Origin: Deltaproteobacteria bacterium
GTDB lineage: Bacteria; UBA10199; SBBF01
Direction of reading: 5' to 3'
Assembly (NCBI GenBank): GCA_016183175.1
Contig: JACPFC010000040.1
Coordinates: 1-60,869 of the forward strand
Length of the DNA stretch: 60,869 bases
The notes under the pieces are model-generated. The model was not told the DNA's origin. It worked only from the letters and a program-made list of their open reading frames with translations, and made no database searches. The first letter of the stretch is position 1, and every line of letters starts with the position of its first letter. Position numbers and translations under genes: made by a program. Shown here one piece after another: positions 7,087 to 51,332 of this stretch.

Positions 7087-7866
7087 ATGCCCGACTTCCT
7101 CACACTGGCCTGCGAGGTTGCCAAAGAATCCGGGCGGATTCAGCGTTCAAACCTCGGCAAGGTCCGGCACATCGAGTATAAGGGTGAAATAAATCTCTTA
7201 ACCGAGGTGGACAAGGCCTGCGAAAAGATGGTCATCGAGCGTCTGCAGGGGGCCTTTCCCGACCATGATATCATGGCGGAAGAGGGGGGCGGCAAGCGGA
7301 AGGACTCCGATTACAAATGGATCATCGATCCGCTGGATGGCACCACCAATTTTGCCCACGGGTATCCCCTTTTTTGCACCTCCATCGCCCTCGAACACAA
7401 AGGAGAGATTGTCCTGGGGGTGGTCTACGAGCCGAATCACGACGAGCTGTTTTGCGCCGAAAAGGGAGGGGGGAGTTTTTTAAATGAAAAAAGAATCCAT
7501 GTCTCGCGCGAAAAGGAGATCGGCAAGAGCCTTCTTGCCACCGGCTTTGCCTACGACATCAAAAAAACAAGCAAAAACAATCTCGACCATTTCAAAAACA
7601 TGCTGATGGCCTCGCAGGCGGTGCGCCGCGACGGCGTGGCGGCAATCGATTTGTGTTATACCGCCTGCGGCCGGTATGACGGCTTCTGGGAGCTCAATCT
7701 CTTCCCCTGGGACGTGGCGGCAGGGATACTGGTGATCACCGAGGCGGGAGGGAAAGTGACCGATTTTTCGGGAAAGCCCTTCTCGGTCTATCTGAAGGAA
7801 ATTTTGGCGAGTAACGGACTGATTCATGAGCAGATGGCGAGTGTACTCAGAAAAAGCGATCGATGA
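7087..7866 (+). CDS. suhB: inositol monophosphatase family protein
   Basis: WIIDPLDGTTNFAHG and WDVAAG motifs. ATG 7087 is preferred over TTG 7051, which overlaps the upstream stop codon. Confidence 0.9.
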   Translation: MPDFLTLACEVAKESGRIQRSNLGKVRHIEYKGEINLLTEVDKACEKMVIERLQGAFPDHDIMAEEGGGKRKDSDYKWIIDPLDGTTNFAHGYPLFCTSIALEHKGEIVLGVVYEPNHDELFCAEKGGGSFLNEKRIHVSREKEIGKSLLATGFAYDIKKTSKNNLDHFKNMLMASQAVRRDGVAAIDLCYTACGRYDGFWELNLFPWDVAAGILVITEAGGKVTDFSGKPFSVYLKEILASNGLIHEQMASVLRKSDR

Positions 7867-7911
7867 AATCCCCCCTTCCCCCCCTTTGGCAAAGGGGGGC
7901 TGGGGGGATTT
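7866..7911. repeat. G6/C6 double-palindrome element, copy 1 (intergenic)
   Basis: AAAT-C6-TT-C7-TTTGGCAAA-G6-CT-G6-ATTT. It begins on the last base of the suhB stop codon. Confidence 0.9.
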
Positions 7912-7922
7912 AAAATACCGAC

Positions 7923-8564
7923 ATGCAAAAAATGAATGAACGCATCCAGTCGAAGGCAATTTATAAGGCCTTCGAGTTGATGCGGCAAAAAAAATTCGAC
8001 GAGTCCGAGGCGGTTCTGACGGAGGGGCTTAAAGAGGCCCAAACGGCGCGCGATCTGGTTTTAACCGCCCTGTTCTATTCCGCCTACGGGGTGCTTTTTA
8101 AGCTGAAAAAAGAATACCGCAAGGCCTGGAAGTACTACGAGCAGGCGGAGAAGCTTATTCCCGACGATCCCGCATTAAAGATCATCTCCTCACGTCTTTT
8201 GGTTGATTATTTTGGTCAACACGACACAGTCATCCGGAAAATGGAGAAAATTCTCCCCAAATTGGGCAATGACATGACCTTTCTCCATCAGGCCTATACG
8301 GTGCTGGGGCTGGCGTACCTCAAAAAAGGGAATAAAAAGAAGGCAGGCGAATGTCTGACAAAATCTGCGGGGAACGATTTTAAGGGATTGCAGTCGGGGG
8401 CCAATTTTGATTTTCGGCTGGTGGAGGAGATGATGAAAAAGAAAAACAATCCCGCCGCCTGCCGCGGTTTTTTGGAGAAGGCCCTTGCGTTTGTCAAAGA
8501 GACCAAGGAAATCCAGCATGAGAGGATATTGAAACGCCTGCTTGATCTGTTTCCTGCCGGGTAG
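7923..8564 (+). CDS. TPR-like helical repeat protein
   Basis: 213 aa, all-helical repeat pattern (YYEQAEKLIPDDPAL, AYTVLGLAYLKKGNKKKA). Confidence 0.55.
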   Translation: MQKMNERIQSKAIYKAFELMRQKKFDESEAVLTEGLKEAQTARDLVLTALFYSAYGVLFKLKKEYRKAWKYYEQAEKLIPDDPALKIISSRLLVDYFGQHDTVIRKMEKILPKLGNDMTFLHQAYTVLGLAYLKKGNKKKAGECLTKSAGNDFKGLQSGANFDFRLVEEMMKKKNNPAACRGFLEKALAFVKETKEIQHERILKRLLDLFPAG

Positions 8565-8694
8565 ATTAATCCACGAGACGAAGCTATTTTTAGCGCGTCC
8601 GCGATTTTTTCAAAAATAAAGCAACTTTGGGGGTTGCCCAGCCGAAAACCATTCCAGTTGGTTTTTAGGGGAAAATTTATCAGGAGGGGGGGGT

Positions 8695-9066
8695 ATGTCA
8701 GCTCAGGTTGCTCTTGTTGCAGAAGGTCAAATTGAACAAATAATTATTTTAATCCGAGGCCAAAAGGTCATGCTCGATGCCGATCTCGCCCGTGTTTACG
8801 GTGTTGAGGCCAGACGGGTCAGGGAGCAGTTAAAGCGCAATTTGGCCAAATTTCCCAATGATTTCATGTTCCGGTTGACCAAAGAAGAGCTAATCGAGGT
8901 CTCCGCAAATTGCGGACACCTCTCTTACCTGAAATTTTCACCCACGCTACCCTATGCCTTTACGGAGTACGGCGCCATCATGATGGCCAGTGTTCTCAAT
9001 AGTCCGGTAAAAATCATATCAGGTCTTGACATTGGATCAGATGAAAACAATGGGGTTGGGTCATAA
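8695..9066 (+). CDS. ORF6N domain protein (possibly truncated)
   Basis: KVMLDADLARVYGVEARRVREQLKRNLAKFPNDFMFRLTKEE fits the phage-associated ORF6N DNA-binding domain. The sequence after VLNSP does not look like the usual continuation. Confidence 0.6.
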   Translation: MSAQVALVAEGQIEQIIILIRGQKVMLDADLARVYGVEARRVREQLKRNLAKFPNDFMFRLTKEELIEVSANCGHLSYLKFSPTLPYAFTEYGAIMMASVLNSPVKIISGLDIGSDENNGVGS

Positions 9067-9282
9067 CCCTCCTTCGCCCCTCGACAGGCTCGGGACTACG
9101 GCCCCAACCCCAACGGGGCCTCTTCGAGGAGGGGCTCCTTTGGGGCAGTGGACAAAACGGATGTCTTGGAGAAAACTAGGGAAAAACTAGGGGACGTTGA
9201 CTTAACGGAATAACTTTTGAACAAGGCTTTTCGCCTGTGGAGATTGGGCCGGGTTATGGGGTTGTATGAAAAATCACTTCGT

Positions 9283-11498: not shown

Positions 11499-11503
11499 AA
11501 AAA

Positions 11504-13562: not shown

Positions 13563-13597
13563 CTGATTTTACTATTTATTTAATAGTAAAATCAGAA
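13561..13597. promoter_or_regulatory. perfect 16-bp inverted repeat (candidate AbiEi operator)
   Basis: TTCTGATTTTACTATT-TATTT-AATAGTAAAATCAGAA. It ends on the A of the abiEi ATG. Confidence 0.6.
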
Positions 13598-14241
13598 TGA
13601 AAGAAAAAATACTTAAGGATTTAGAATCATTACCCTATTTTACAAAAAGAGCTTTGATGGTCATAGAAAACATCAAGGAAAGGGCTCTTTCTGAAAATAT
13701 TCAGCGTTGGATTCATCACGGATTTCTCATCCGTTTGAAAAATGGTCTTTATGTTACGAAAACCTACGTCGATCGTTCTCTTCATGACACGGGCTATCTG
13801 GAATTAATCGCCAATAAGCTTGTCATGCCTTCCTATTTAAGCCTCGATTATATTTTGCAAAAGAATGGTTTATTAACCGAGGCGACCTATTCCATCACTT
13901 CGGTGACAAGCAAATCAACAAGACAATATACCAATAAGCTGGGGACTTTTACTTATTCCACCCTTCATTCCAAACTGTATTTTGGTTTCAAGAAGGTCAG
14001 TTACGGCAAAAATGCAGTTTATGAAGCTGAAATTTTCAAAGCCCTTTTTGATTATTTTTATTTGCGCCTGGCCGGTACCAATTTGGAAAGTAAAGAGGCG
14101 ATCGAAGAGCTTCGAATTAATTGGGGGAATCTAAATTCGGGGGAGTTTGACAATTTTTGTAAAACAATTGAAAAAAATGGAACAAAAAAAATGGCGAGGA
14201 TAATTCCTTTTTTAAAGGAGGCCTATGAGCACCCTCATTGA
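13597..14241 (+). CDS. AbiEi-like antitoxin/transcriptional regulator
   Basis: GFLIRLKNGLYV and SYLSLDYILQKNGLLTE blocks are typical of AbiEi-type proteins. It overlaps the downstream NTase gene by 17 nt. Confidence 0.7.
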   Translation: MKEKILKDLESLPYFTKRALMVIENIKERALSENIQRWIHHGFLIRLKNGLYVTKTYVDRSLHDTGYLELIANKLVMPSYLSLDYILQKNGLLTEATYSITSVTSKSTRQYTNKLGTFTYSTLHSKLYFGFKKVSYGKNAVYEAEIFKALFDYFYLRLAGTNLESKEAIEELRINWGNLNSGEFDNFCKTIEKNGTKKMARIIPFLKEAYEHPH

Positions 14242-15055
14242 TGATTTGAAAAGTACATGTCAGGAGGGGAAGATTCTCGGCTTAAGGCCCGATGTTTTAC
14301 GAATCAAGCTCAAGGAAAAGTTGCAGTATTATGTTTTGGACTATATCTACAACAGCCAAGCTTACAGTCATCTGACAATGTACGGAGGAACATCCTTGAG
14401 GGTTTGTTTTAATTTGAACAGAATGTCGGAGGATATCGACTTTGAAACGACAAAACCGTTTGACAAAATGAAATTCGCCCAGGACATCAAACAATACTTT
14501 TCAAAAAAAATCCAATATCGCTCTTTGACAACCCATGTTCCAGGAAAAGGGGTGAGCCGTGTTGAATTAAGGTTTCCGCTTCTTCATGAACTTGGTTTAT
14601 CGGCCCACGATGGTGAGAATTTGATTGTCAAAGTCGAGGCGAATACGATCGACAAAAACTACCCCAGCGATTTCAAAACAATTACGGAAGGGCGATTTGG
14701 TTTTGTGGTGAGGCATTACATCCTCCCGGTCCTTATGGCGGGTAAAATACTGGCTTGTCTGGACCGAATTTGGGAAAAAAGCGGGGTAAAAATCAAAGGA
14801 CGGGATTATTACGATTTGATTTGGTACATGCAAAAGGGGGTGATCCCCGACCGGGATTATCTTGCCGATAAAGGGTACACCCGGGAGGAAGCTTTCAAGA
14901 AACTGGGGAAGAAAATAGAGTTAATAAAACCTGGGGATCTTTTGGCGGATTTGATTCCCTTATTTGAAAATCCCGATTTTCCAAAAAATTGGAGTGAGGT
15001 TTTCAAAAGACAATTTGTATCATTGCATGCGCAATATCATTGGTCACGTGATTAA
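14225..15055 (+). CDS. AbiEii/AbiGii-family nucleotidyltransferase toxin
   Basis: The YGGTSLRVCFNLNRMSEDIDFE NTase motif and the size (276 aa) fit type IV TA / abortive-infection AbiEii. Confidence 0.8.
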   Translation: MSTLIDDLKSTCQEGKILGLRPDVLRIKLKEKLQYYVLDYIYNSQAYSHLTMYGGTSLRVCFNLNRMSEDIDFETTKPFDKMKFAQDIKQYFSKKIQYRSLTTHVPGKGVSRVELRFPLLHELGLSAHDGENLIVKVEANTIDKNYPSDFKTITEGRFGFVVRHYILPVLMAGKILACLDRIWEKSGVKIKGRDYYDLIWYMQKGVIPDRDYLADKGYTREEAFKKLGKKIELIKPGDLLADLIPLFENPDFPKNWSEVFKRQFVSLHAQYHWSRD

Positions 15056-15099
15056 ATCCCCCCAACCCCCCTTTGACAAAGGGGGGCGAGGGGGGATTT
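15054..15099. repeat. G6/C6 double-palindrome element, copy 2 (between convergent genes)
   Basis: AAAT-C6-AA-C6-TTTGACAAA-G6-CGA-G6-ATTT followed by TTTATT. It overlaps the abiEii stop codon. Confidence 0.9.
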
Positions 15100-15107: not shown

Positions 15108-15764
15108 TCAATTTTTTTCTTTCTCTTCTTCCTTTTTCGCCCACTCCTCGATCGGGCGGTTGAAGATTCCCGACAATTGTTCGTCCACCAGATAGATGTG
15201 GCCGTCCGTCTCGTCGCGGACAAAGGTTGAAAAGATATCAGGCCCCTGTTTTCCCACAAACAGACGGGCCAGTTTTTTCCCTTTCGCGTCGAAGAGGGCC
15301 ACATTCAGCGCCGCATTGGTCAGCTCCAGCGGCCCCTGTTTTTCCGGGTCGTCGGTGACCGGCGTCCCTTTTTTCAACTCCACCAGCGTCGTGATCAGCT
15401 CCTCCACTTTCGATGGCTCGGCCGGAAGTTTCTTCTGCGCTGTCTTTTCGGCTGTTGATTTTTCCTGCTTCCCTTTTTCAGCCGATTTGTTCTTTGCCTC
15501 TTTTTTGTCTGCCTCCTCAATTTTCTTTTGAATTGCGGTTTCCTTGAGCGACACCACCCATTTTCCATCCAGATCCTTTTCAAACCGGGTGCCGTTGACG
15601 AGATATTCAATTTCGATGGCCGCAATGTCCGCTTCTTTCAAATCGGGATAGAAAAGAGATCCCTCTCCCGTGTCAAACCGTTCGTGAAACGGTTTTTCCA
15701 CGATGACGACAACCGTTCCCAAAATAAACACCGCCGCCAGAAGGATGAGAATTTTTTTGGACAT
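15108..15764 (-). CDS. DUF4340-like protein (accessory to GldG-type ABC system)
   Basis: Real start MSKKILILLAAVFILGTVVVIV (ATG 15764, N-terminal TM anchor). It occupies the position downstream of the GldG-like gene that is typical for DUF4340. Confidence 0.6.
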   Translation of the reverse strand: MSKKILILLAAVFILGTVVVIVEKPFHERFDTGEGSLFYPDLKEADIAAIEIEYLVNGTRFEKDLDGKWVVSLKETAIQKKIEEADKKEAKNKSAEKGKQEKSTAEKTAQKKLPAEPSKVEELITTLVELKKGTPVTDDPEKQGPLELTNAALNVALFDAKGKKLARLFVGKQGPDIFSTFVRDETDGHIYLVDEQLSGIFNRPIEEWAKKEEEKEKN

Positions 15765-15768
15765 GTTC

Positions 15769-17316
15769 TTATATATAAATAATCGCCGCTTTCTCCCGTC
15801 TTTTTTTCCTGAGAAAAGCAAGGAGAATGCCGAAGCCGATGACCGCCAGCGGGATTCCCACCATATGCCCGAATTTGATCGCCGATGTCGCAGTGGGGGA
15901 GGGGAGGGCAATCGGCCGCGTTGTCTTGCCTCGCGAGCGGATGCCGATCAACTGATCCCCCAGCGTCAGTCCGTCGAGCAGATTCTGGACAAAGACAAGA
16001 TTCCCCGGATAGTCGGCCACAACGTGATCTTTGATAAACTGCGTATTTGCCGCCGCCACCAACAGCCGTTTTTTATCTTCCTGATTCGGTAGCGGAGCCT
16101 CCACCAGCACTGCGATGGTCTTTTTTCCCGCCTCCCCCTCCTGAAAATTCTCCAGCGCGCCCGGAACCACAATCGGTTCCCCCGCCTGCGTGAGCGCCGC
16201 CTCCGAACTTTGCGCCAGCGGCGTATATTTCCAGCCGGCATGGTCGTCGGGGAACATTTTGAGCGTGTTGGTCCATGGAAAGAGGATGTTTTCCAGCTTG
16301 GCGGTGGCCATGTTCTCGCTGTTTAGCCCCTCGCGCGTCACCTGGACAAAGAAAGGGTACGGGATGGAATATTGCATGATCCCAGAGGTGAAGGTGGCAT
16401 TGGTGTGATTGCGCGGATCGATGATGAGTTGGGCATCGATTTCGATCCCCCTCGTTTTAAGCCACTCCTCCAGCCCCGTCTTGACCCTTGAGGTCTGCAA
16501 ATCGTCTCCCACATTCACCGTTCCCGCCAGGACAACGATGGGAATTCCCTTCTCAAAAAGGTCGTCGAGATTTTTCTTTGCCTTGTCCGGAAAATCACGG
16601 GGATCGACAATAAGCAGGGCGCTGATTTCCGATCGGGCGAGATCGTCGGAGGCCGGATCGAGGCGATCGACGGCAAACCGCCCCTTTAACGCCTCCTCGA
16701 GGCGGGAATAGGGCCCCCGCCCCGGAAGGCCCAGCTGATCGTTTTCGGGGGGAGGAACCACAAGGCCGAGTTTGGGCTCTGCAGAACTGGTCAATTTCAA
16801 AACAGCCGAGGTGAGGTCATACTCCAGATTTTCAACCTTTACGGCCAGCGGGATGACCTCTTTTTTGTCGAGATAAAAAAGGGCCATGCCCATATAGACC
16901 TTCATCACCTCCTGCTTGTCGCGCCGGATGACGTTCAACTGAAGGGGGGGAATGCCGAGCATTTGCGCCTCCATTTCCCTTTCCTGCGATTCCTCCGGCG
17001 TCACCTGAACAATATTGATCTTTCGCCGGGAATAGACCCGGTATTCGTCCAGAAGATCGAAGATCCTCTGCTTTAACGGAGAGAGGCTCGGCGGGATCTC
17101 TTTGCTGAAATAAACCTTGAGTGTCACCGGGTCTTTTAAGTCTTTGAGGACGTTTCGGGTCGATTCGGAGAGGGTGTATTCCTTTTCCTCCGTGAGATCG
17201 GCGCGCAAAAAAAGGCGCGAGAAGAGCACGTTCGCCAGAAAAAGGGCGAGCGCGACAAGACCCACTGTCGCCAATGCCTGAACGCGGTTTCTTTTTTTAT
17301 TTTTTTGATCCATCAT
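15769..17316 (-). CDS. GldG-like ABC-transporter auxiliary protein
   Basis: N- and C-terminal TM anchors flank a large periplasmic domain. The ATGA overlap with the upstream permease stop (17313-17316) suggests translational coupling. Confidence 0.72.
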   Translation of the reverse strand: MMDQKNKKRNRVQALATVGLVALALFLANVLFSRLFLRADLTEEKEYTLSESTRNVLKDLKDPVTLKVYFSKEIPPSLSPLKQRIFDLLDEYRVYSRRKINIVQVTPEESQEREMEAQMLGIPPLQLNVIRRDKQEVMKVYMGMALFYLDKKEVIPLAVKVENLEYDLTSAVLKLTSSAEPKLGLVVPPPENDQLGLPGRGPYSRLEEALKGRFAVDRLDPASDDLARSEISALLIVDPRDFPDKAKKNLDDLFEKGIPIVVLAGTVNVGDDLQTSRVKTGLEEWLKTRGIEIDAQLIIDPRNHTNATFTSGIMQYSIPYPFFVQVTREGLNSENMATAKLENILFPWTNTLKMFPDDHAGWKYTPLAQSSEAALTQAGEPIVVPGALENFQEGEAGKKTIAVLVEAPLPNQEDKKRLLVAAANTQFIKDHVVADYPGNLVFVQNLLDGLTLGDQLIGIRSRGKTTRPIALPSPTATSAIKFGHMVGIPLAVIGFGILLAFLRKKRREKAAIIYI

Positions 17317-20776: not shown

Positions 20777-22874
20777 TCAATCATCCTCTCTCTCCCCGCC
20801 AAGAGATAGCACCTGATCCGCGCGCGAGAGGTTGCGGTAGACCGTAAGCCCCTTGCAACCGAGCTGATGGGCCAGCCAAAAGACCTTGGCCACATCCTCC
20901 TCGGTGGCGCTTTCTGGCAGATTCACCGTTTTTGAAACGCCGTTTTCAGTGTGCTTTTGAAACGCAGACTGCATCCGGACATGCCGGTCGGGGGGGATGT
21001 CGTAGGTGGTCGCATAGAGGCGCCGGATTTCCGGGGGGATCTCCTCGATGTCCGCGATCGATCCGCTCTCGGAAGCCTGCTGGAAAATATTTTCCGGAAA
21101 AGTGCCGTAGGCGCGCCGGGCCCACCCTTCAAAATCGGGGTTGGTGAAAAGGAGTTCTTTTCCGCCAAGGACCTTTTTCACAAAGACAACGCCGTAGAGC
21201 GGTTCGATGCCGCTTGAACAGTCGGCGATCATGCTGATGGTGCCGGTGGGGGCGATGGTCGTGACGGTGGCGTTCCGGCGCTTGATTCCCCGTTCCGCAT
21301 AGACGCTTTCGTGATAATTCGGAAAAACCCCGCGCTTTTTGGCCAGAACAATCGAGGACTGCTCCGCCTCTTTTTGGACAAACCCCATCACCCGCTCGGC
21401 CATGTCGAGCGCCTCGAAGGAATCGTACGGGATTCCCAGGCGGATCAGCATGTCGGCCCAACCCATCACCCCGAGGCCGATCTTCCGGTTTTTTTTGGCC
21501 GTCTCTTCAATCTGCGGAAGGGGGTAGCCGTTGATCTCGATGACATTGTCCAAAAAATGGACCGCCCGGTGGATGACGCCACGGAGCCTTTCCCAGTTGA
21601 TCTTTTCGTTTTCCACTATCACTCCCAGGTTGATCGACCCGAGGTTGCACGCCTCATAGGGCAAAAGCGGCTGTTCCCCGCACGGGTTGGTCGCCTCCAG
21701 AGGCCCACAGGCGGGGGTGGGATTGGCTGAATCGATGCGGTCGAGGAACAAAACCCCCGGCTCACCGTTTTTCCAGGCCTGATGGACGATCTTCCAGAAA
21801 AGCTCGCGGGCGGAAACCGTCCGCACCGGTTCGTCGGTGCGGGGATTGACAAGCGGCCAGGGCTGGTCCTCTTCCACCGCCTTCATGAACGAATCGGAAA
21901 CTCCCACCGAGATGTTGAAATTGGAAAGCTCGCCGGGGGTGTCTTTGGCCTCGACAAAATCGGGGATGTCGGGGTGGTTCACATTTAGAATGCCCATGTT
22001 GGCCCCTCGACGGGTTCCCCCCTGTTTGATCGCCCGCGTGGCGGCGTCGTAAACGCGCATGAACGTCGTTTTTGGGGCGGAGGTAGTTGAAGGTGAAGCC
22101 GGTGCCGCCGCCGGTTTTGTGGATGATGGCCGACTGCTTCATCGTATCGAAAATCGACTCCATGCTGTCGCGCACCGGCAGGACAAAACAGGCGGAGAGC
22201 TGGCCGTTCGGCCGGCCCGCGTTCATGAGGGTCGGCGAGTTGGGCAAAAAGGCCTTGAAGGCCATCAGATTATAAAAATCAGCTTCAACGAGCGCAAGGT
22301 CGGCCTGCGGATCGTAACGGAGATCGGCCTCCGCTATGGCCCGGGCCACGCGGGTAAAGAGCTCCTCGGGCGTTTCGACGGCCTCCCCCCGTTCGTTTTT
22401 GGCGAGATAGCGTGTTTTTAAAACTTCCAAGGCGTTGGGGGAAAAAGCGAGCGCCGTTTTTTGGGCCTGTTTTCGTTTTATCTCTTCTTCCGATTCGCGG
22501 GGGGCGGGGGCCATGATGTCGAGAATTTCGGGGGGGAGATAATCGTCCGCCCCAGGCGGCCGATCCGCTTCATTTTCCGCGAAATCGGCCGAATCGGGTT
22601 GCGCCAACCCCCCAGGGGCCAGCCCCCTGGGGGCGAGCCCCAGATCGACAAGCCTGTCGCGGATCATTTCATCCAAAACTTCGGAAGAGATATTCCGGAT
22701 CTTGCGGCGCAGAAGGTCTTTTTCAATCTCGTTGCCGATGAGGGTTGCCATCTGCGGCGTGATCTTCGGGTTGTTGAGAATTTTAAGCCGTTCGAGGAGC
22801 TGGTCCCGCCTGAAGGGCCTCCCCCGCAGGCTTTTTGCCGCTTCCGAAAGGATCGGTGTGACCATATCCGACAT
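20777..22874 (-). pseudogene. nrdJ: class II (B12-dependent) ribonucleotide reductase, disrupted by an internal deletion plus frameshift
   Basis: The N-terminal frame (22874 down to about 22062) ends homology at [17 protein letters not shown]. The C-terminal frame (22060-20777) starts [23 protein letters not shown] and carries NPCGEQPL. The conserved loop normally between them (..TGG.ASGPVSF) is absent and the frames differ by 1 nt. Confidence 0.8.
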
Positions 22875-25700: not shown

Positions 25701-25814
25701 CACCGAAAGAGTCAGCTACTCTACGCGAGCGGAGCGAGCCTTTAGTGAAAGGGGTGAGGAGCGTCTGGCTTTGCCAGCGCGACGAGGGGGAAAGCCTTCC
25801 CCCTTGTGGTAACC

Positions 25815-27400: not shown

Positions 27401-27445
27401 TAGTCCTGTTTATTGGTTTAAACCTGCTATAATCGGAGGTCGTTT

Positions 27446-34900: not shown

Positions 34901-37012
34901 AATGCCTGCGATTTTCTGGCCGAGGTCCACCGCGAAACCGGCGAGTTCGAGAAGGCGCTCGCTTTGCTTTCCAGGGCGGAAAAAATTTTGGGCGAACAAC
35001 CGCCGCTGGCCCCCTACCGCTTTTACATCCACCTCGATTTTTCCAAGACGTACGCCCAGCAGGGGAAAAGAGAGGAGGCCGTCAGGCACTACGAAAAGGC
35101 GGTACAAATGGCCAAAACCGACACCGAAAAAGAGGAATTGAAGGAATTTCGAAAAACCTATTTACACCAGGAGGCAACCATGAACACCGACGCCGGGAGC
35201 ACCGAGGCCAAAAAAGAAACATCGGAGTTTGAAACCATCCTGCACATCAATCAGATGATCAACGCCGAACACAACCTTGAGGCGCTGATGAAGATAGTCC
35301 TTCGCTACGCCCTGGAACTCTCGAAGGCGGAGGCCGGGCTGATTCTTTTGTTGACGAGCGAGGGGGAACTTTCGGTTGCGGCCTCGCTGAACACCACGAT
35401 GAGCGAGGAGCTGTCGCGCTTTTCCACAAGCGTCGCCCGCAGAGTGGTGGAAACGGGCGAGGAGGTGGTTTTGGCCGACGCCATCGTGGACGAACAGTTC
35501 AAGTCGTCCGACTCGATCATTTTAAACGAGATGAAATCGATTCTCTGCCTCCCCATCCGCTCGCGCAACCGGATTGTCGGCGTCTTCTATCTGGACAACC
35601 GCTATCAGGCCGGCGCCTTCGCCGGCGTCAACCGGAAGGTCCTGTCGGCCTTTTGCGACCAGGTGGGGATTTCCATCGAGAACGCGCGGCTGATTGAGGG
35701 CTACCGCGAGGCCAACGAGGGGCTGGAAAAACAGCTGGAGCAGACAAACGTCGAGCTTTCGGAGGTCAAAGAGCGGCTCAAAAAAGAGACCTCCCTCTAT
35801 CTGACCCGATATTCCTACAGCCAGATCATCTCCAAGAGCAAGGCGATGCAGGAGACTTTCAAGATTCTGGACAAGATCACCGAGACGAACCTCTCGGTCT
35901 ATCTCTTTGGCGCCTCGGGCACGGGGAAGGAGCTCATCGCCCGGGCCCTGCATTACAACAATCCGCAGAGGGCCGCGCGGCCCTTCGTGGCCATCAACTG
36001 CGGCGCCATTCCGCAAAACCTGATCGAGAGCGAACTCTTCGGCTACAAGGCGGGGAGCTTTACCGGCGCAACGCGGGACAAAAAGGGGCTCATTGCCGAG
36101 GCCGACGGCGGGACCCTCTTTTTGGACGAGATCGGCGAGCTGGAGACGTCTTTGCAGGTGAAACTTCTCCGCGTTTTGCAGGAGAGCGAGGTGCGGCCGA
36201 TCGGCGACACCGCCTCTTTCAAGGTGGATGTGCGGGTCGTTTCGGCCTCCCACCGCGATATTCAGGCCGCCATCGGCGAGGGAAAATTCCGCGAGGATCT
36301 TTTTTACCGCCTCTGCCAGATCACCCTTTCGATCCCTCCGCTTTCAGAGCGGAAGGAGGACATCCCCGTTTTGGCCGAGCATTTCGTGGAAAAATTCCGG
36401 AAGGAGAACAAAATCAAAAAACCGGTCCGCATCGCCCCTCCGTTCCTGAAAATCCTTTTGAACTACGACTGGCCGGGTAACGTCAGGGAGCTGGAAAATC
36501 TGATCTCGGTCGCCTGCGCCCTCCGTGAGGGGGACAGTCTGGCCGCCTCCTCCATCCCCCCCAACCATCCCGCGGTTCGGGCCGGCGGGCCGACAACCGG
36601 CGTCTCTTCATCGTCTCTGCAGTCGTCGAAGATGACAGCTGTTGAAGGGGTCGCGATTGATCCCCACAACACATTCGACCCGCAGAAGACATGGGCCGAT
36701 TATGAAAAGGTGATTCTGGCCAAATGCTACCAGACCAATGAATTTAAAAAAACGGCCTCTGCCGAGATGATCGGGATTTCACCTTCAACTCTGTACAAGA
36801 AAATCGACGAATCCGGTCTGGACGACCGGAACAACCCGGTCTACCAGGATCCCTTCGTCTACGAAAAGGGAAAGTCTCTGAAGGATTACATCCCGCTTGT
36901 CTTTCAGGCGGCGCTCAAGGCGGCGGGCGACAAACCCTACACCGCGATCCGACAGTTGGGGGTTTCGCAGGGATATTTTTATAAAATCATCAAGACCGCA
37001 AAGGCGGCGTAA
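31970..37012 (+). CDS. 1680-aa fusion: Ser/Thr protein kinase - STAND/AAA_16 P-loop - TPR array - GAF - sigma54-interaction AAA+ domain - HTH
   Basis: Kinase motifs GSGLSGEV, ALKFLK, HLDIKPQN, DFG and YMAPE. P-loop GEVGSGKSRL plus MVLIDEP. Many TPR-like units. GAF domain around 35230-35700. bEBP core GASGTGKE, GSFTGA (GAFTGA variant) and FLDEIGEL. Fis-type HTH IGISPSTLYKKI plus a second HTH-like tail. ATG 31970 follows an AT-rich promoter-like tract. Confidence 0.85.
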   Translation: MNKPRLVDNRYKIIRELGSGLSGEVLLVEDAGGQKALKFLKRIQMGVSREEALANFKNEFSILSELNHPGIARILDFGFDPLLMKYYFTSELVEGADFLKATEGKSIDEIELLAVQVFRALNYLHSRGIYHLDIKPQNILVQNPPQPPFDKGGGGGISKLIDFGLSALSRREKVGGTPAYMAPEVPAGGNLDGRTDLYSFGVVLYKVLTRNNPFAASKPQDTIKNHQTLTPPPPSEVNPQVPKYWDLILMRLLEKNPSDRYPEASVVIRDLNFLAGKKYEFETAETRLSYVPEKGALVGRRPEMLKFRALFETVFSPSSPTLPRLLIVEGEVGSGKSRLLTEFKYYSQLHNVPTLSLKEEEEGSHPPPYMVLIDEPENIPAERVGALLAHSVNKKVLIVWAAPTAPSALSHCEKIRLNPFDAVELAAYLTAVTGLADPPPGLVDEIFRRTGGNPLFVTELLKTLLRHDLLLDASGRWAGPTLEDMKIDFEKIKAPKTVSELLLRRLEKLDAEERKIVEWMAVFREALSPSTLELLAEIRRPQTHLLNLAREDILSRQVVEGGYFFKNILMGDVIYEGLPLEARRKMHDAAARYLEKTKGSEEKILLHRGKGTGDKEAVSALCELAGLQTKKGGFGEAEKILETAWGRAQKMDPKTQIAVEIQLAESQVKVRRYTEAINHYLHLKGLLDRSLPAGGAGKERIAVYEKLGDLYARLDQYPKALELFDAAIGWLDPVGVGPPGAGPPGAGPPGLKPGDRTARMILENHRANIFMKSGKLDEAEALFRKNQLLWEKGFTAEEKTGVANNHLAYVLILQKKYGEAKVEIDKQIAFFRKNENPYWLARAHYLYGDLYYQQMIMVHTGKERERDKAESISAFEECHRIAKGIDSFDTMLRAYNGIANLYFHEKEYVQSREYYERALALARRQEDYEAAAAISLNLGNIFRLQKQYADAYSYLVYTVNTLEGADPKNYQIWFFLLNACDFLAEVHRETGEFEKALALLSRAEKILGEQPPLAPYRFYIHLDFSKTYAQQGKREEAVRHYEKAVQMAKTDTEKEELKEFRKTYLHQEATMNTDAGSTEAKKETSEFETILHINQMINAEHNLEALMKIVLRYALELSKAEAGLILLLTSEGELSVAASLNTTMSEELSRFSTSVARRVVETGEEVVLADAIVDEQFKSSDSIILNEMKSILCLPIRSRNRIVGVFYLDNRYQAGAFAGVNRKVLSAFCDQVGISIENARLIEGYREANEGLEKQLEQTNVELSEVKERLKKETSLYLTRYSYSQIISKSKAMQETFKILDKITETNLSVYLFGASGTGKELIARALHYNNPQRAARPFVAINCGAIPQNLIESELFGYKAGSFTGATRDKKGLIAEADGGTLFLDEIGELETSLQVKLLRVLQESEVRPIGDTASFKVDVRVVSASHRDIQAAIGEGKFREDLFYRLCQITLSIPPLSERKEDIPVLAEHFVEKFRKENKIKKPVRIAPPFLKILLNYDWPGNVRELENLISVACALREGDSLAASSIPPNHPAVRAGGPTTGVSSSSLQSSKMTAVEGVAIDPHNTFDPQKTWADYEKVILAKCYQTNEFKKTASAEMIGISPSTLYKKIDESGLDDRNNPVYQDPFVYEKGKSLKDYIPLVFQAALKAAGDKPYTAIRQLGVSQGYFYKIIKTAKAA
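32395..32441. repeat. G6/C6 double-palindrome element, copy 3 (in frame inside the kinase domain)
   Basis: AAAT-C7-AA-C6-TTTGACAAA-G8-A-G6-ATTT. It translates as NPPQPPFDKGGGGGI between ILVQ and KLIDFG. Confidence 0.9.
34178..34221 (+). repeat. 15-nt tandem repeat GGCCCCCCCGGGGCT (2 full units plus a shortened third) inside the TPR region
   Basis: It encodes GPPGAGPPGAGPPGL. Each unit contains the CCCCGGGG palindrome. Confidence 0.85.
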
Positions 37013-42767: not shown

Positions 42768-45700
42768 TTGGGAAAGTGCCTTAAGCTGTCGCGGTTTATC
42801 GTGCAGAATTTGTTTGATGCACTTGTTGACCGTCTGAAAATTGCGGGGCAAAAAACGGGTCTGGCCGGCGCCGTCGGCGCCTCAAAGGCGCTGATTCTGA
42901 AACGCCTGATCGACCGCATTCAGCGGCCGATCGTCGCGGTCACCCGCGACGCAAAAGAGGCCGCCCGGCTGGTACAGAACCTCCGGTTTTTCGCCTCCGC
43001 CGATGTACAGGTGCGCCTTTTTCCACCGCTGGACATCCTCCCTTACTACAATCTTTCCCCCCAACCCGATGTCATCATGGAGCGGCTGAATCTTCTTTGG
43101 GAACTCACGCGCCGAAGAGATCCCTTTTTCACCGTTGTTCCCCTGCATGCCCTCACGCGACGAACAATCCCCCGCAAGATCCTTCTGGAGCGCACAAAAA
43201 CGCTGGCGGCTGGTGAAGAAATTTCCCGCGACTCCCTGATTGAAACCCTGGCAGGCCTTGCCTATCAGCGCGTCCCGCTGGTTGAAGACCGGGGAACCTT
43301 TGCCGTCCGCGGGGGCATTGTTGATATTTTTTCTCCGGCGCACCCTCTCCCCTTAAGGCTCGAGTTTTTTGGCGACACGATCGAGTCGATCAGGTTTTTT
43401 GATCCGGTCAGCCAGAAATCACAAGACAAAACGGAAGCCATGGCGCTCCTCCCCGCCCGTGAAATTCTTTTGAGCGAACTGGGGGAGAACTGGAAGAGCG
43501 GCTTAAAGAAACTCGCCGATGACCATGATATTCCCAAGCCGGAACGCGACTGGGTCGCGGAAAAAATGGCCCACCGGCTCTCGTTTAACGGCATCGAAAC
43601 ATTTCTCCCCTTCTTTTATCCCGGGGGAGCCAGTGGCCCGGGCGGGACCCTCTTCGACTATCTCCCCTCGGAAGCCATTGTCTGTCTTGTGGGTGGGGAG
43701 GAATTGGTGAGCCGGTGGGAAAAGGAGCTTGAAGAACATCGCGAACACCAAGAAAAATCGACGAGTATCGAGAGAATGTTCGCGCCGGAGGAAATTTTTT
43801 TGACGACGGGGGAGATCGACGAAGGTCTTGGCTATTTTTCGAGGATGGATTTTGCGGAAACAGGAAAAGAGGTTCTTCAGTTGACGATGGAATCAAACGC
43901 CCTCCTCAAGACAAAACTCGCCCTTGGTCATGTCAGCGAACAGGGGTTAAAGCCCCTTGCGGATATTTTGAATCAGCGCCGGATCGAGGGATGCCGTCTC
44001 TTTCTCGTCTCCGGTTCGCCTGCCCAACAGGAACGGTTGAGCGATCTTCTGGCCCGCTACGAAATCCCCCTTTTAAAATTGACCGACGGGCATGAAAGCA
44101 GACGGGCCGTTCAGAGCGCCCTCGAAGGGAATGATCCATCCCCCTTTATCCAGATCGTTCCCGGCCCGATCTCGGAGGGTTTTTACTGGGCTATTTCAGG
44201 GGCTCGCGTCGCCCCCTCCGCCGGCAAAGCCGGCGGAGCCTCCCCCTCACCGCCGCTGTGCGGCTGGTTAGGTGATCAGTGGTGGATCACCGACGAGGAG
44301 ATTTTCGGGCAAAAGGGGAGAACGCTTTCAAAAAAACCGACCGGTGAGCCGATCTTTTCCTTTTCTGAACTTGCACCGGGCGATTTTATCGTCCATCGCG
44401 ACCACGGCATCGCCGTTTACAAAGAACTGGTCTCGCTGAAGCTCGACTCCGTGCAGAACGATTTTCTTCTGCTGGAATATCTTGGCGGAGACAGACTTTA
44501 TGTTCCGGTCGACAAACTGAACCTCATCACCCGATATGCCGCAAAAGAAGGGCATCCCCCAATGCTCGACAAGATGGGGGGAACGTCGTGGAAGCGGGCC
44601 AGGGAAAAGGTCAAACGGGCGACAAGAAGGCTGGCCCGGGAACTTTTGGAACTGCAGGCGGTCCGTCAGGCCCAGAAAGGGTATGCCTTCTCTCCGCGCG
44701 ATGAACTCTTCGAGGAATTTGAGGCGACCTTTTCGTTTGAAGAAACGTCCGATCAGCTTCAGGCCATCGACGATGTCATTTCCGACATGACGGAAACAAG
44801 GCCGATGGACCGGCTTGTCTGCGGCGACGTGGGATACGGCAAAACCGAAATCGCCATCCGGGCCGCCTTCAAGGCGGTGGAAGACAAAAAACAGGCGGCG
44901 GTTCTGGTTCCCACCACCATATTGGCCTTTCAGCATTTTGAGACCTTCAAAAAACGGCTCGAAAATTTTCCGGTGACCGTGGAACTTCTCTCCCGCTTTC
45001 AGACCGCCGCCGAACAGAAAAAAATCGTCCAAAAACTGGCAAAGGGAGAAACCGACATCGTCATCGCCACCCACCGGCTTCTTTCGACGGACGTGCGGTT
45101 TGGCGATCTGGGGCTTTTGGTGATCGACGAGGAGCACCGCTTTGGCGTGGCGCAAAAGGAAAAGATCAAAAAACTCAAAAAATTGGTGGATGTGCTCACC
45201 CTTTCGGCAACCCCCATTCCCCGAACGCTCAACTTCGCGCTCGTCGGCATCCGCGACCTCTCGGTGATCAACACCCCGCCGGCCGACCGGCTTTCCATCC
45301 GCACCTATGTGACGCGGTGGGATTCGGGGGCCGTTCGCGAGGCGATTTTGCACGAAATGGGGCGCGGGGGGCAGGTCTTTTTTGTCCACAACCGGATCCA
45401 GACGATCGAAAAGATGCGGGACCAGCTCCGAAAAACGGTCCCCGAGATCCGAATAGAAATCGCCCATGGCCGGATGAACGAGGACGATCTGGAAGAGGTG
45501 ATGATCGGATTCATGGAAAAAAAATTCGAGGTCCTCCTTTGTACCGCCATCATCGAATCGGGGCTGGACATCCCTTCCGCCAACACCATCATCATCAACC
45601 GCGCCGATCACTTCGGCCTCGCCCAGCTCTACCAGTTGCGGGGGCGGGTCGGCCGGTCGTCGCACCGGGCCTACGCCTATCTTCTGGTGCCGGACGACGA

Positions 45701-46412
45701 GCTGATCACGGAGGATGCCAAAAAGAGATTGAGCGTGATTCAGCGTTTTACGGAACTGGGGTCGGGATTTAAAATCGCGGAGTACGATCTGGAAATCCGC
45801 GGCGCCGGCAATATCCTCGGCCCCGAACAATCGGGGATGATCCATGCTGTGGGGTACGATCTTTATGTTTCGCTCTTGAAACAGGCGGTGGCGGAGTTGA
45901 AGGGGGAAGAGACGGAGGAGGAAATCGATCCGGAGTTGAAGCTCAACATCTCGGCCTACCTGCCGGAGGATTATATCGCCGACACCTCGCTCCGTCTTCA
46001 GCTCTACAAACAGTTGGCGATGGTGGAGGACGAACTTCTCTGCCTGAACTTGGCGGAAGAATGGGCCGACCGTTTTGGCCCCCTCCCCGAACCCTCAAAA
46101 AATCTCATTGCCCTGATGCGGATCAAGATTTTGGCCAAAAAACTCCGGCTCAACTCGGTTGCCTTCAAGGACCAACTCCTGACCGTGCAGGTGGACCCCT
46201 CCAGCCGGATCCCGACCGAATACTTTTTGGAAAAGGTCAAAAAGGAACCGAAGAAATACCGGGTTCAGCCGAATGGGAAGTTTGTGATTGATACGGGGAA
46301 AAAATTGGAGGGGGAGGTTTTTGAGGCGGTGAGGGAAAACCTTTCGGAGATGCTCATCCACATCCCCCCCTTTGAAAAAGGGGGGCCAGGAGGGATTCAG
46401 GGCGCCGCATGA
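42768..46412 (+). CDS. mfd: transcription-repair coupling factor
   Basis: Full-length architecture with CarD-like RNAP-interacting domain and SF2 motifs GDVGYGKTE, DEEHRFG and LSATPIPRT. The listed start is TTG. Confidence 0.93.
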   Translation: MGKCLKLSRFIVQNLFDALVDRLKIAGQKTGLAGAVGASKALILKRLIDRIQRPIVAVTRDAKEAARLVQNLRFFASADVQVRLFPPLDILPYYNLSPQPDVIMERLNLLWELTRRRDPFFTVVPLHALTRRTIPRKILLERTKTLAAGEEISRDSLIETLAGLAYQRVPLVEDRGTFAVRGGIVDIFSPAHPLPLRLEFFGDTIESIRFFDPVSQKSQDKTEAMALLPAREILLSELGENWKSGLKKLADDHDIPKPERDWVAEKMAHRLSFNGIETFLPFFYPGGASGPGGTLFDYLPSEAIVCLVGGEELVSRWEKELEEHREHQEKSTSIERMFAPEEIFLTTGEIDEGLGYFSRMDFAETGKEVLQLTMESNALLKTKLALGHVSEQGLKPLADILNQRRIEGCRLFLVSGSPAQQERLSDLLARYEIPLLKLTDGHESRRAVQSALEGNDPSPFIQIVPGPISEGFYWAISGARVAPSAGKAGGASPSPPLCGWLGDQWWITDEEIFGQKGRTLSKKPTGEPIFSFSELAPGDFIVHRDHGIAVYKELVSLKLDSVQNDFLLLEYLGGDRLYVPVDKLNLITRYAAKEGHPPMLDKMGGTSWKRAREKVKRATRRLARELLELQAVRQAQKGYAFSPRDELFEEFEATFSFEETSDQLQAIDDVISDMTETRPMDRLVCGDVGYGKTEIAIRAAFKAVEDKKQAAVLVPTTILAFQHFETFKKRLENFPVTVELLSRFQTAAEQKKIVQKLAKGETDIVIATHRLLSTDVRFGDLGLLVIDEEHRFGVAQKEKIKKLKKLVDVLTLSATPIPRTLNFALVGIRDLSVINTPPADRLSIRTYVTRWDSGAVREAILHEMGRGGQVFFVHNRIQTIEKMRDQLRKTVPEIRIEIAHGRMNEDDLEEVMIGFMEKKFEVLLCTAIIESGLDIPSANTIIINRADHFGLAQLYQLRGRVGRSSHRAYAYLLVPDDELITEDAKKRLSVIQRFTELGSGFKIAEYDLEIRGAGNILGPEQSGMIHAVGYDLYVSLLKQAVAELKGEETEEEIDPELKLNISAYLPEDYIADTSLRLQLYKQLAMVEDELLCLNLAEEWADRFGPLPEPSKNLIALMRIKILAKKLRLNSVAFKDQLLTVQVDPSSRIPTEYFLEKVKKEPKKYRVQPNGKFVIDTGKKLEGEVFEAVRENLSEMLIHIPPFEKGGPGGIQGAA
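46362..46397. repeat. G6/C6 palindrome element, degenerate copy 4 (forms the Mfd C-terminal tail)
   Basis: ATCCCCCCCTTTGAAAAAGGGGGGCCAGGAGGGATT encodes IPPFEKGGPGGI just before the mfd stop. Confidence 0.7.
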
Positions 46413-46819
46413 CGGGCTTCGTACTGAACTGGAAAAAGCTTGTCGAGACTTACGCGCCGGGAGGCATTGACAATTTCAATGCCGACGATTCTGTCCTTTT
46501 CGCCCATATCGAGAACAACATCATCTGAAACACGGCGATTGATCACGGCCTGCTTCTTGTCGTCGAGACGAATGTAGAGGAGATCGTTCTTATCGTTGTA
46601 GGAAATATTCATTTTTATGACGTAGTATACCTCAATTTTCTTTTGTTCGTAATATTTATTTTGACGTTTTTTCCGGTACGGAAAAATTTTTGCTTTTCCC
46701 TGCCTGTCATATTTGGCGGCAATAGGCAATCCCGTTTGAATCACATCAATGATTTCATCCTCAGTTGTGCCACGTTCCTCGGCCCTTTCCAGTGTATGTG
46801 GATCGATGATCACTTTCAT
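46397..46819 (-). CDS. fused DUF4258-like / DUF2283-like protein
   Basis: The N-terminal half MKVIIDPHTLERAEERGTTEDEIIDVIQ is DUF4258-toxin-like. The C-terminal half MNISYNDKNDLLYIRLDD..IVGIEIVNAS is DUF2283-like. There is no stop between the halves. AT-rich. Confidence 0.6.
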   Translation of the reverse strand: MKVIIDPHTLERAEERGTTEDEIIDVIQTGLPIAAKYDRQGKAKIFPYRKKRQNKYYEQKKIEVYYVIKMNISYNDKNDLLYIRLDDKKQAVINRRVSDDVVLDMGEKDRIVGIEIVNASRRVSLDKLFPVQYEARHAAP

Positions 46820-49851: not shown

Positions 49852-49892
49852 TGCCCCTACATAACATTAACAAGGGGCGTGACAAACAAAAA

Positions 49893-49923
49893 AACCCCGA
49901 TCCGCCACAGGCGGACCGGGGTT
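49893..49923 (-). terminator. rho-independent terminator of porin copy 1
   Basis: Read on the minus strand: AACCCCGGTCCGC-CTGT-GGCGGATCGGGGTT followed by TTTTTTGTTTG. Confidence 0.75.
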
Positions 49924-49956
49924 CTTTTGCAAATCTTCTTTACCCTTGGAGCCGAA

Positions 49957-51135
49957 TTAGAAGCTGTAATCAAACTCGGCCAATAACGAATGATAGTCCG
50001 AGTTGGCCGCAGGGCCCGCAACCGCCGCAAAGTCGAAGCGGTATTCCAGCTTCATCTTCGCGCCGTCGGCAATCTGATAACCCGCGCCCAGCGTGCCGCT
50101 GTAGGTGTTGCCTTCGTGACCCGTCGCCGCGGTCCCGTTCCAGAAACCGCCCGTGGTGGAGGCGCCCGAGCCGGTGATAGGGTTGATTTCCCACATCCAC
50201 CCGCCGCGGAAGCTCACATCCCACACGTCGCTGGCCTCATAATTCAGGCCGATCCAGCCGGCAATCGCCTTCTGGTTTTTGCTGGCGGCAACGATATTGT
50301 CGCTCTGACGATAGACCCCTTCCATCGCAACCGTCACGGTGTCGGAGGCGGCGATCATCAGGTCGAGGTCGCCGAAGAAATCCCAGTGGGCGTTCTGCGA
50401 AGCGCCGCCGGCAACCCCGGCATCGCTTTCAGGGCTGAAACCGCCCGAAATGCCGATGGTCGATTCGTTCCCTTCGTCGCCCCAGTTGAAGCCCAACCGG
50501 AACAAGCTGGCGGGAATGGCCGAATCGCCAAAGCCATTGGCGTTCAAGTCATTGACCACGCCGAAATGGAAATCGACCAGGTCGCTGAAGGCATAGTACA
50601 GCTTTGCGCCGATCACCTGACGCGGGATGAGATGCCGGTACGGAAACATGTATGAAATGAGCCAGTTGTCCGCCCGATCAACCGATTCCACCCCCACCGG
50701 GGCATTAAACTTGCCGATCAGGAATTCGATGCCGTTGCCGGCCGCCAGGTTGGCGGTGACATAGCCCTGTTCCAGATCGTACGCGTCGGCTACCCGGGTG
50801 TTGGTGTTGGCAAAGTCGACAAAGTCCACATCAGCGCGCAGGCGGATATTCTCCCCAAAGCTCTTTTGGAGATCCAACTCCACCTGATCGACGATGAAGC
50901 GAAAATGGTCGGCATTGGCCGCGGTGGCGAAGGTGACATCACCCATGCCTCCCAAGGCGCCGCCGGTGGCATCTTGGTCGTCATGCTGATAGCCGGTGAC
51001 AACCGTCACATTGCCGGACAGCTCCAACCCCCCCGCCGCCGCCTCCGGCGCCGGAGTTCCATTGGCCCATGCGCTTATACTGACCGCAAACAGGAAGGTA
51101 CCTGTTAGCGCGCCTGCCATTATCCTTTTTATCAT
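49957..51135 (-). CDS. outer-membrane beta-barrel porin-like protein, paralog 1
   Basis: Signal peptide ending SAWANG, alternating beta-strand pattern, and the C-terminal AEFDYSF aromatic terminus. Confidence 0.7.
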   Translation of the reverse strand: MIKRIMAGALTGTFLFAVSISAWANGTPAPEAAAGGLELSGNVTVVTGYQHDDQDATGGALGGMGDVTFATAANADHFRFIVDQVELDLQKSFGENIRLRADVDFVDFANTNTRVADAYDLEQGYVTANLAAGNGIEFLIGKFNAPVGVESVDRADNWLISYMFPYRHLIPRQVIGAKLYYAFSDLVDFHFGVVNDLNANGFGDSAIPASLFRLGFNWGDEGNESTIGISGGFSPESDAGVAGGASQNAHWDFFGDLDLMIAASDTVTVAMEGVYRQSDNIVAASKNQKAIAGWIGLNYEASDVWDVSFRGGWMWEINPITGSGASTTGGFWNGTAATGHEGNTYSGTLGAGYQIADGAKMKLEYRFDFAAVAGPAANSDYHSLLAEFDYSF

Positions 51136-51284
51136 ATAGGTCTCTCCTTTATTGATGGTTTTAAAACCAACTCACTCCTTCTCTACCAAATATAAATATA
51201 ATGTAATAATATTGGTCGATTAGGAACTGTTACAAAATTAAGTGGAATTAAGTTTAATTATATTAAATTATATGTCAAGGAAAT

Positions 51285-51332
51285 AAATCCCCCCTTGCCC
51301 CCCTTTGACAAAGGGGGGGGTTGGGGGGATTT
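51285..51332. repeat. G6/C6 double-palindrome element, copy 5 (between the two porin genes)
   Basis: AAAT-C6-TTG-C6-TTTGACAAA-G8-TT-G6-ATTT. Confidence 0.9.

Follow-up and report, generated by a model that had tools for sequence, protein, structure and literature searches.

The stretch of DNA analysed here, 60,869 nucleotides of a deltaproteobacterial genome (contig JACPFC010000040.1 of assembly GCA_016183175.1; hereafter the window), carries five copies of a short G/C-rich element that probably belong to a very widespread family of small, non-autonomous palindromic repeats like repetitive extragenic palindromes (REPs) and bacterial interspersed mosaic elements (BIMEs). The basic unit of the family is a polar monomer, in which a hairpin, C5-6 TTT NNN AAA G5-6, is accompanied by one unpaired tag 2-4 nt away; seen from one strand this tag is AAATC5-6, from the opposite strand G5-6ATTT. 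The inner hairpin alone is 19-23 nt long, to which the tag is added, while elements of the family measure 32-48 nt and the full form, with a tag on each side, 46-48 nt. Members of the family have spread to unrelated sites, apparently mostly just downstream of genes. No window copy has stop codons in more than one of its six reading frames, and copies therefore also survive in tolerant protein loops and tails, like a kinase loop and the C-terminus of Mfd.

Copies of the element in the window

Positions are those of the window, and each site was read individually.

7866-7911, no strand assigned: copy 1, full double-tagged form, 46 nt, AAAT C6 TT C7 TTTGGCAAA G6 CT G6 ATTT
15054-15099, no strand assigned: copy 2, full form, 46 nt, AAAT C6 AA C6 TTTGACAAA G6 CGA G6 ATTT
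32395-32441, + strand: copy 3, full form, 47 nt, AAAT C7 AA C6 TTTGACAAA G8 A G6 ATTT
46364-46397, + strand: copy 4, single-tag (half) form without a 5' arm, C7 TTTGAAAAA G6 CCA GGAGGG ATT
51285-51332, no strand assigned: copy 5, full form, 48 nt, AAAT C6 TTG C6 TTTGACAAA G8 TT G6 ATTT

The four full copies follow one plan: AAAT, C6-7, 2-3 variable bases, C6-7, TTTG(A/G)CAAA, G6-8, 1-3 variable bases, G6 and ATTT. The flanks of the window copies are unrelated to one another, and what the copies share is nucleotides, not just amino acids. When the core C5TTTGRCAAAG5 was sought with up to two mismatches, five sites were found in the window, all of them copies of the element, against 0.02 expected (100 shuffles); the arm pattern gave 15 matches against 0.77 expected. 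On either strand, each of the four full copies folds into a two-stem hairpin, with energies of -33.7 to -37.6 kcal/mol and z values of -2.9 to -5.8. The energies on the plus and minus strands are -34.6 and -37.4 kcal/mol for copy 1, -33.7 and -37.1 kcal/mol for copy 2 (z -4.5 and -5.8), and -37.6 and -34.1 kcal/mol for copy 5. Copy 4 forms the inner hairpin alone, at an energy no better than that of shuffled sequences. The sole stop codon in the frames of the elements comes from TTTGA, where the centre base is A. A preliminary description of this DNA had counted five copies and had proposed two stacked stems. The count and the places hold at each site (with copy 4 at 46364-46397), and the two stems are supported by folding of the four full copies on both strands.

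Copies 1, 2 and 5 are intergenic; all three are 3' of a gene and none is between divergent genes. Copy 1 is found between a suhB-like gene (7051-7866, +; Pfam Inositol_P) and a tetratricopeptide repeat gene (7923-8564, +), and the A of the suhB-like stop codon TGA (7864-7866) also begins its AAAT. Copy 2 separates a DUF4340 protein gene (15108-15911, -) from the AbiEii gene convergent with it (14225-15055, +), whose stop codon TAA (15053-15055) runs into the AAAT of the copy. A run of T directly follows copy 2 (ATTTTTTATT). Copy 5 lies between tandem minus-strand genes matching the Pfam family of BBP2 porins (51419-52591 and 49957-51135), 8 nt from a separate canonical hairpin with an A run, a stem and a U run at 51341-51378 (-25 to -27 kcal/mol, z about -5.5). 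In a terminator scan, copy 5 was flagged as terminator-like on the minus strand, which is the strand of its upstream gene, and copies 1 and 2 were not flagged. That intergenic copies abut the stop codons of suhB and abiEii or sit next to terminators had been claimed beforehand; the first is accurate for both genes, as TGA and TAA overlap AAAT, and the second fits copy 5 with its terminator-like neighbour. A general stop-codon rule is not claimed, for in other genomes the distances to stop codons show a weak pile-up at the edge of the element and open reading frame (ORF) calls are noisy in GC-rich DNA.

The genes beside two of these copies may be described further. Copy 2 abuts the 3' end of an AbiEii toxin-antitoxin pair (13597-15055, +), in which the toxin gene overlaps the end of an upstream ORF of 214 residues without a Pfam match. 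This ORF, placed before a nucleotidyltransferase toxin of the AbiEii family, probably encodes an AbiEi-like antitoxin. The porin genes on either side of copy 5 and its terminator-like neighbour are tandem paralogs (BBP2, OmpL-like; 49957-52591, -) and are adjoined by a DUF4172-Fic gene (52889-54001, +).

The remaining two copies are inside genes. Copy 3 is read in frame as NPPQPPFDKGGGGGI within an ORF for a Ser/Thr protein kinase of 1725 residues (31835-37012), between the catalytic loop HLDIKPQN and the DFG motif. The loop is 19 residues long in the window and about 9-16 in 14 homologues of at most 67% identity (11-12 in the closest three), and none of the 14 has the P/G motif there. Because the homologues have a shorter loop without this motif, copy 3 appears to be an in-frame insertion. 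Copy 4 is translated as PPFEKGGPGGI within the last 16 codons of mfd (42768-46412), a gene identified by a PDB sequence search. Past the last residue aligned to Escherichia coli Mfd, the tail has 36 residues in the window versus 21 in E. coli, and the C-terminus is apparently about 15 residues longer through copy 4 than the E. coli comparison predicts. The stop codon of a convergent DUF2283 gene (46397-46819, -) overlaps the last base (T) of the copy 4 tag. Translation of two copies, in the kinase ORF and at the end of mfd, thus agrees with what had been described, as does the tolerance of the element in frame inside genes, given the kinase homologues without the insert.

Two observations concern the kinase and the homopolymer runs. 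The kinase-borne copy (32399-32437) contains C7 and G8 runs and copy 5 a G8 run (51313-51320). As run lengths vary among copies, slippage could frameshift the kinase gene, possibly as phase variation, or cause sequencing errors. A kinase homologue from another metagenome (P0005) has the C-terminal end ...SQSPYPKGGRLIFQN; a related hairpin repeat, located elsewhere in the gene, may be translated there.

Anatomy and distribution of the family

In a scan of species-representative genomes, the 19-nt core was found at no fewer than 120 loci, and it was present in 49 viral contigs of IMG/VR. The genome counts are lower bounds and the loci are not a random sample. About nine matches would be expected by chance in 596 Gb, by our own estimate assuming equal base frequencies. 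Most of the genome loci also have N2-4 G5-6 ATTT on one side, for which the search pattern did not ask, and conservation ends directly after ATTT. Among the matches listed, hosts with clear tags are spread over about 12 bacterial phyla: Nitrospirota, Nitrospinota, Methylomirabilota, Desulfobacterota and other 'delta' lineages, Beta-, Gamma- and Zetaproteobacteria, Chloroflexota, Bacteroidota (an Alistipes/Tidjanibacter variant, and Kapaibacteria), Glassbacteria, Omnitrophota, Gemmatimonadota, Binatota and Dependentiae. Cultured carriers include Geotalea toluenoxydans, Formivibrio citricus, Desulforhabdus sp. TSK, Iodobacter arcticus and Pseudoxanthomonas sacheonensis.

Metagenome-assembled genomes (MAGs) of Nitrospinota, Nitrospirota, Methylomirabilota and deltaproteobacteria contain full 46-nt copies with 90-98% identity to those of the window. 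Copy 2 has 96-98% identity to copies in Nitrospinota and Nitrospirota MAGs, and the rest of the window has no nucleotide match to those MAG loci beyond the element. Up to seven hairpins are present per 8-kb locus in other genomes. A blastn search of PLSDB plasmids and INPHARED phages returned no match, which is not evidence of absence since the low-complexity filter may have masked the query. At the gathering thresholds of Rfam 15 the window yields tRNAs only, and permissive scans return generic hairpin noise far below the thresholds, in keeping with the earlier remark that this sequence family was not recognised.

A distinct variant, ACATTCCCCCTAAATCCCCCTTTGRCAAAGGGGGATTTAGGGGGAATGT, is found in gut Bacteroidota (Alistipes/Tidjanibacter; loci L027, L032, L034, L038, L039, L093 and L100). 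The end of its outer arm, AAT/ATT plus GT/AC, suggests that it forms a subfamily of its own, in a group of distant ecology.

The anatomy of the family was taken from a tolerant search of all 170 sequences, which gave 303 hairpins and none in shuffled controls. One tag accompanies 227 of the 303 hairpins, two accompany 28, and 48 have none. Written with the G-run tag 3', about three quarters of the monomers have a purine at the centre, so that the unit is polar. Neighbouring monomers at most 150 nt apart are inverted in 56 of 58 pairs, with the tags facing inward in 29 and outward in 27. Two hairpin subtypes, a 5-mer with an ATTTA spacer and a 6-7-mer, often alternate. Compound forms also exist in which two hairpins are enclosed by one outer stem, as do composite elements of 80-150 nt. 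The 46-nt form of the window is a compact merged form, with one hairpin and a tag on each side, the tags being paired as the outer stem. The preliminary description had presented the 46-nt double palindrome as the element and copy 4 as degenerate. The double palindrome is a real element in the window, but it is not the basic unit, which is the single-tag half form, and copy 4 is not degenerate since a hairpin with a single tag is the commonest natural form of the family.

In one Nitrospirae MAG, a single-tag monomer is contained in a composite repeat of about 150 nt (L041:7820-8000, L117:5513-5662 and L109:2623-2806). The same composite repeat has a ACCCCACAG...CTGTGGGGT hairpin and a CCCCTCTTT..AAAGAGGGG variant hairpin.

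Pairing in the stem appears to be under selection, judging from the substitutions among copies. In 18 of the 37 hairpins with two substitutions, both substitutions fall on a single base pair, which stays complementary, where about 2% would be expected (our own estimate). One recurring change, C:G to T:A at a single position, accounts for 11 of these 18 compensatory cases, which may therefore partly reflect one inherited subfamily. Single mismatches are compatible with G.U pairing on either strand equally (17 versus 19), giving no sign of selection on one transcript or at the RNA level.

Most of the 49 viral contigs with the core also carry tags. About half of the 49 are Mu-like, with Pfam matches to Portal_Mu, Mu F, the Mu G-like morphogenesis protein, Gp36 and GemA, and the portal matches Mup29/H of cultured Mu-like phages. 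The element is inside the portal gene in at least nine Mu-like contigs, in one homologous linker about 100 residues before the C-terminus.

Viral loci with a portal copy: L121, L130, L144, L146, L149, L156, L158, L159, L162 and L165 (for example L121:8216-8234 and L130:860-878)

Identity among the element-bearing portals is 24-41% only. Their copies are read in two frames, as PPF[ADGV]KGG or PPLTKGG, all four centre bases occur, and some copies have a tag 5' of the hairpin, some 3' of it and some on both sides. Sister portals of 48-59% identity have no element (L143, L122, L132, L131 and L169). The best explanation of this patchiness is that the element was gained repeatedly at a linker that is tolerant and rich in proline; alternatively, an old insertion may have been continually homogenised. 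Further phage copies are found in GemA, in an early family of 265-residue ORFs of no known function, and near gp36. In near-complete Mu-like contigs the copies in the portal linker are at about 0.41-0.48 of the length, rough positions as contig ends may include host DNA. The portal gene of cultured Mu-like Pseudomonas phages is at about 17-19 kb of about 39 kb.

Mobility and alternative explanations

Copies of the element would most likely be made in trans by an enzyme that recognises the hairpin and the single-stranded tag on single-stranded DNA. The putative enzyme would act as REP-associated tyrosine transposases (RAYTs) and IS200-type HUH transposases do for REPs. Mobilisation of this hairpin-plus-tag kind is proposed because of the analogy with REPs and the lack of duplications. 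Target-site duplications were not found in 50 double-tagged elements, where direct repeats at the flanks did not exceed their frequency in shuffled pairings at k=2-8; the absence of duplications fits single-strand (HUH-type) rather than DDE-type mobility. Once in place, intergenic copies may secondarily act as hairpins at the 3' ends of transcripts.

Several points weigh against a REP-like repeat of this kind. Neither the 43 scanned ORFs of the window nor the neighbours of the element in 169 loci yielded a mobilising enzyme. A Pfam scan of the 43 ORFs gave no transposase domain, Y1_Tnp included, and the ORF clusters of the 169 loci revealed no linked gene family, a comparison that would overlook a single-copy gene located away from the copies. 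Those clusters comprise a histidine kinase, an ABC ATPase and Mu phage structural genes, with housekeeping enzymes in small clusters and no transposase. The GTAG or CGTC tag that defines REPs is absent next to the element. The orientation of the centre base is identical in all five window copies, which has a probability of 1/16 and, with five copies, is a weak objection. Copy number is known for the 61-kb window alone (five copies), and the inserted unit and the act of insertion are deduced from protein alignments only. Finally, conservation of 30-46 nt across about 12 phyla is not predicted by a simple selfish REP. It may point to a conserved function in host or phage, or to an unusual way of spreading.

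Given this conservation, a bolder proposal can be offered, tentatively and with limited confidence. The element may define an unrecognised REP-like superfamily, with a hairpin and an AAATC5-6 tag, present in many phyla. Its constancy would be due either to one widespread hairpin-plus-tag enzyme or to a conserved service at the DNA level, for example as a site for gyrase or a nucleoid protein at the centre of Mu-like genomes, and phages would serve as vehicles between lineages. The cross-phylum pattern would mean either a very widespread new mobilisation system or strong DNA-level selection on a tiny sequence.

Instead, the element could act chiefly as an RNA hairpin, either an intrinsic terminator working in both directions or a 3' stem-loop stabilising mRNA, that selection keeps at gene ends, with its spread being secondary. 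The position of all three intergenic window copies downstream of a gene, two of them abutting the stop codon, suits such a role, as do the T run after copy 2, the terminator-like call for copy 5 on the strand of its upstream gene, the strong folds on both strands and the compensatory changes in the stem. Relatives of the element in Geobacter bemidjiensis, discussed below, are likewise 3' of genes in all six cases and between tandem genes in five. However, termination cannot be the role of copies within the genes for the kinase, the Mu-like portal and GemA, and the commonest, single-tag form has no U-tract after the hairpin. Moreover, copies 1 and 2 escaped the terminator scan, and copy 5 would be redundant as a terminator because of the canonical hairpin alongside it. 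Neither is there a strand-specific excess of G.U pairs, and a terminator role leaves the conservation of loop and tag across phyla unexplained. As the main explanation we consider this unlikely, while a terminator or stabiliser role is plausible for the intergenic full copies.

It is less probable that the element is primarily a double-stranded or cruciform DNA site for a conserved protein, comparable to the sites that E. coli BIMEs offer to DNA gyrase and IHF, and in Mu-like phages an analogue of a central strong gyrase site. BIMEs reportedly bind gyrase, and phage Mu is said to have a strong gyrase site at its centre. The element is a near-perfect DNA palindrome with an odd centre, its pairing is kept equally on both strands, and the portal copies are near the middle of near-complete Mu-like contigs. 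Yet binding is a candidate property only, the copies in GemA, in the early ORF family and near gp36 mean that the element is not solely central in these phages, and the polar single-tag monomer is left unexplained.

We also regard as doubtful, more so than the previous two alternatives, that the element is a classical miniature transposable element with inverted repeats (MITE), with AAATC6 and G6ATTT as terminal inverted repeats for the DDE transposase of an insertion sequence. The full form does have inverted termini around a short core, composites of 80-150 nt occur, and many copies are present in many genomes. A MITE, however, would be expected to leave target-site duplications, which the 50 elements compared at k=2-8 lack. 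Most copies have only one 'terminus', pairs with the tags inside and pairs with the tags outside are equally common, which is senseless for terminal repeats, and no transposase is near any copy examined.

That the copies are a conserved peptide motif, PPxPPFxKGGxGG, with the intergenic ones as coding remnants, is hardly credible: although two window copies are translated in the same frame, three are intergenic, the nucleotides themselves are conserved and show no synonymous divergence (a nucleotide repeat, as had been argued from the start), the portals use two frames and all four centre bases, the host proteins (kinase, Mfd, portal and GemA) are unrelated, and homologues lack the motif.

Two smaller suggestions were rejected. 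TTGACA in the loop does not appear to serve generally as a -35 promoter box, as promoter scans flagged nothing in copies 1, 2 and 5 and the centre base varies freely. A G-quadruplex formed by G6-N-G6 is disfavoured as well, since pairing between C-runs and G-runs is much more stable and only two G-runs are present in half forms.

Whatever its origin, the element has consequences for annotation. It gives rise to spurious P/G-rich peptides in gene calls and lengthens real proteins, and frameshifts and assembly errors are likely to cluster at its G6-G8 runs. It could also be used as a marker of gene transfer between phages and hosts.

The window around the copies is ordinary chromosomal DNA. Its Pfam matches include iPGM, a SuhB-like phosphatase, QueA, SpoIID, a peroxiredoxin, the AbiEii toxin, an ABC transporter set, BamD, ribonucleotide reductase, MutY, MetG, HolB, Tmk, two BBP2 porins and a Fic protein. 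Judged by their order and sizes, the ORFs at 26075-31795 may be tig-clpP-clpX-lon. The gene for the large subunit of ribonucleotide reductase is split into two overlapping ORFs (20777-22874, -) with a break near 22060. After LRPKNDV about 14 codons are gone and the reading frame is shifted, so that the gene is either a pseudogene or an assembly error. We take the lost codons to include the conserved GG.ASGPVSF-type stretch of class II ribonucleotide reductases. Between tRNA-Lys and tRNA-Leu, Rfam reports a fourth tRNA at 25786-25863 (+), at 29.9 bits against a threshold of 29 bits, for which ARAGORN makes no call; it may be a degenerate tRNA or a tRNA-like remnant.

Comparison with known repeats

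Among known systems, the REP, BIME and REPIN repeats of Proteobacteria, palindromic sequences tagged with GTAG or CGTC (Di Nocera et al. 2013, PMC3733652), are the closest in behaviour. Like them, the element has a short palindrome, imperfect and rich in G/C, one end of which bears an unpaired tag that is conserved (PMC3733652). It occurs as monomers and as head-to-head and tail-to-tail inverted dimers, with alternating subtypes. The inverted dimers are met across the family, while the window itself has merged double-tag forms and one monomer. The full form is a stem-loop of -34 to -38 kcal/mol with compensatory changes. As with REPs and BIMEs, copies sometimes supply or abut a stop codon, are occasionally inside ORFs, and have no target-site duplication. 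A position mostly outside and downstream of genes, as in those repeats, is suggested by the window, where three of the five copies are intergenic and all three are 3' of a gene. Unlike REPs and BIMEs, the element has the tag AAATC5-6 in place of GTAG or CGTC, no RAYT gene was found with it (43 window ORFs, 169 loci), and the form in the window has a tag on both sides of one hairpin. In addition, the whole sequence of 30-46 nt, not just a tetranucleotide, is conserved over about 12 phyla and phages. REP families are normally species- or genus-specific, and RAYTs, the known REP-mobilising enzymes, are best documented in Gammaproteobacteria. The element works like a REP but, because the test of the tag fails, it is not a member of the GTAG or CGTC superfamilies.

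The second likeness is to Rickettsia palindromic elements, which are reportedly 100-150 bp long, restricted to Rickettsia and inserted in frame in unrelated genes. The element shares with them a palindromic repeat that stands in frame at tolerant positions of unrelated genes and adds a peptide segment, as seen in the kinase loop, the Mfd tail and the Mu-like portal linker. It differs in size (32-48 nt against 100-150 bp), in its unrelated sequence and in being present in many phyla rather than in Rickettsia only. The preliminary description had been reminded of both REPs and Rickettsia palindromic elements, and the tagged monomer, the inverted dimers and the in-frame copies in genes justify the comparison. 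Heterocystous cyanobacteria are said to have small dispersed repeats that form hairpins of about 20-30 nt and are found in coding and RNA genes. These too are very small, hairpin-forming mobile repeats that nest and have no known transposase, whereas their sequence and lineage are other than those of the element. We know of no description of a tag-plus-hairpin polarity or of an inverted-dimer rule for the cyanobacterial repeats.

In sequence, the nearest record comes from Geobacter bemidjiensis, where an unnamed 'conserved sequence', AAGTCCCCCTTTGCGAAGGGGGATTAGGGGGATTTC, is listed in six copies as Gbem_R5001-R5006 (Aklujkar et al. 2010, PMC2996986, Table S6). The table gives it without structure, distribution, mechanism or interpretation. 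It is close to the single-tag form, with C5 TTTG..AA G5, a 4-nt spacer and G5 ATTT, and unlike the element of the window none of its six copies is the double-tagged 46-nt form. A subtype AAGT-C5-TTTGRCAAA-G5-ATTTA-G5-ATTT recurs in Geobacter and deltaproteobacterial loci. Searches of full-text literature with DNA words and the encoded peptides returned no other relevant record than this table. The kind of element, REP-like and tolerated in frame like a Rickettsia palindromic element, is therefore known already, while the tag, the double-tag form and, above all, the nucleotide conservation over about a dozen phyla and the recurrent capture by Mu-like phages appear to be new.

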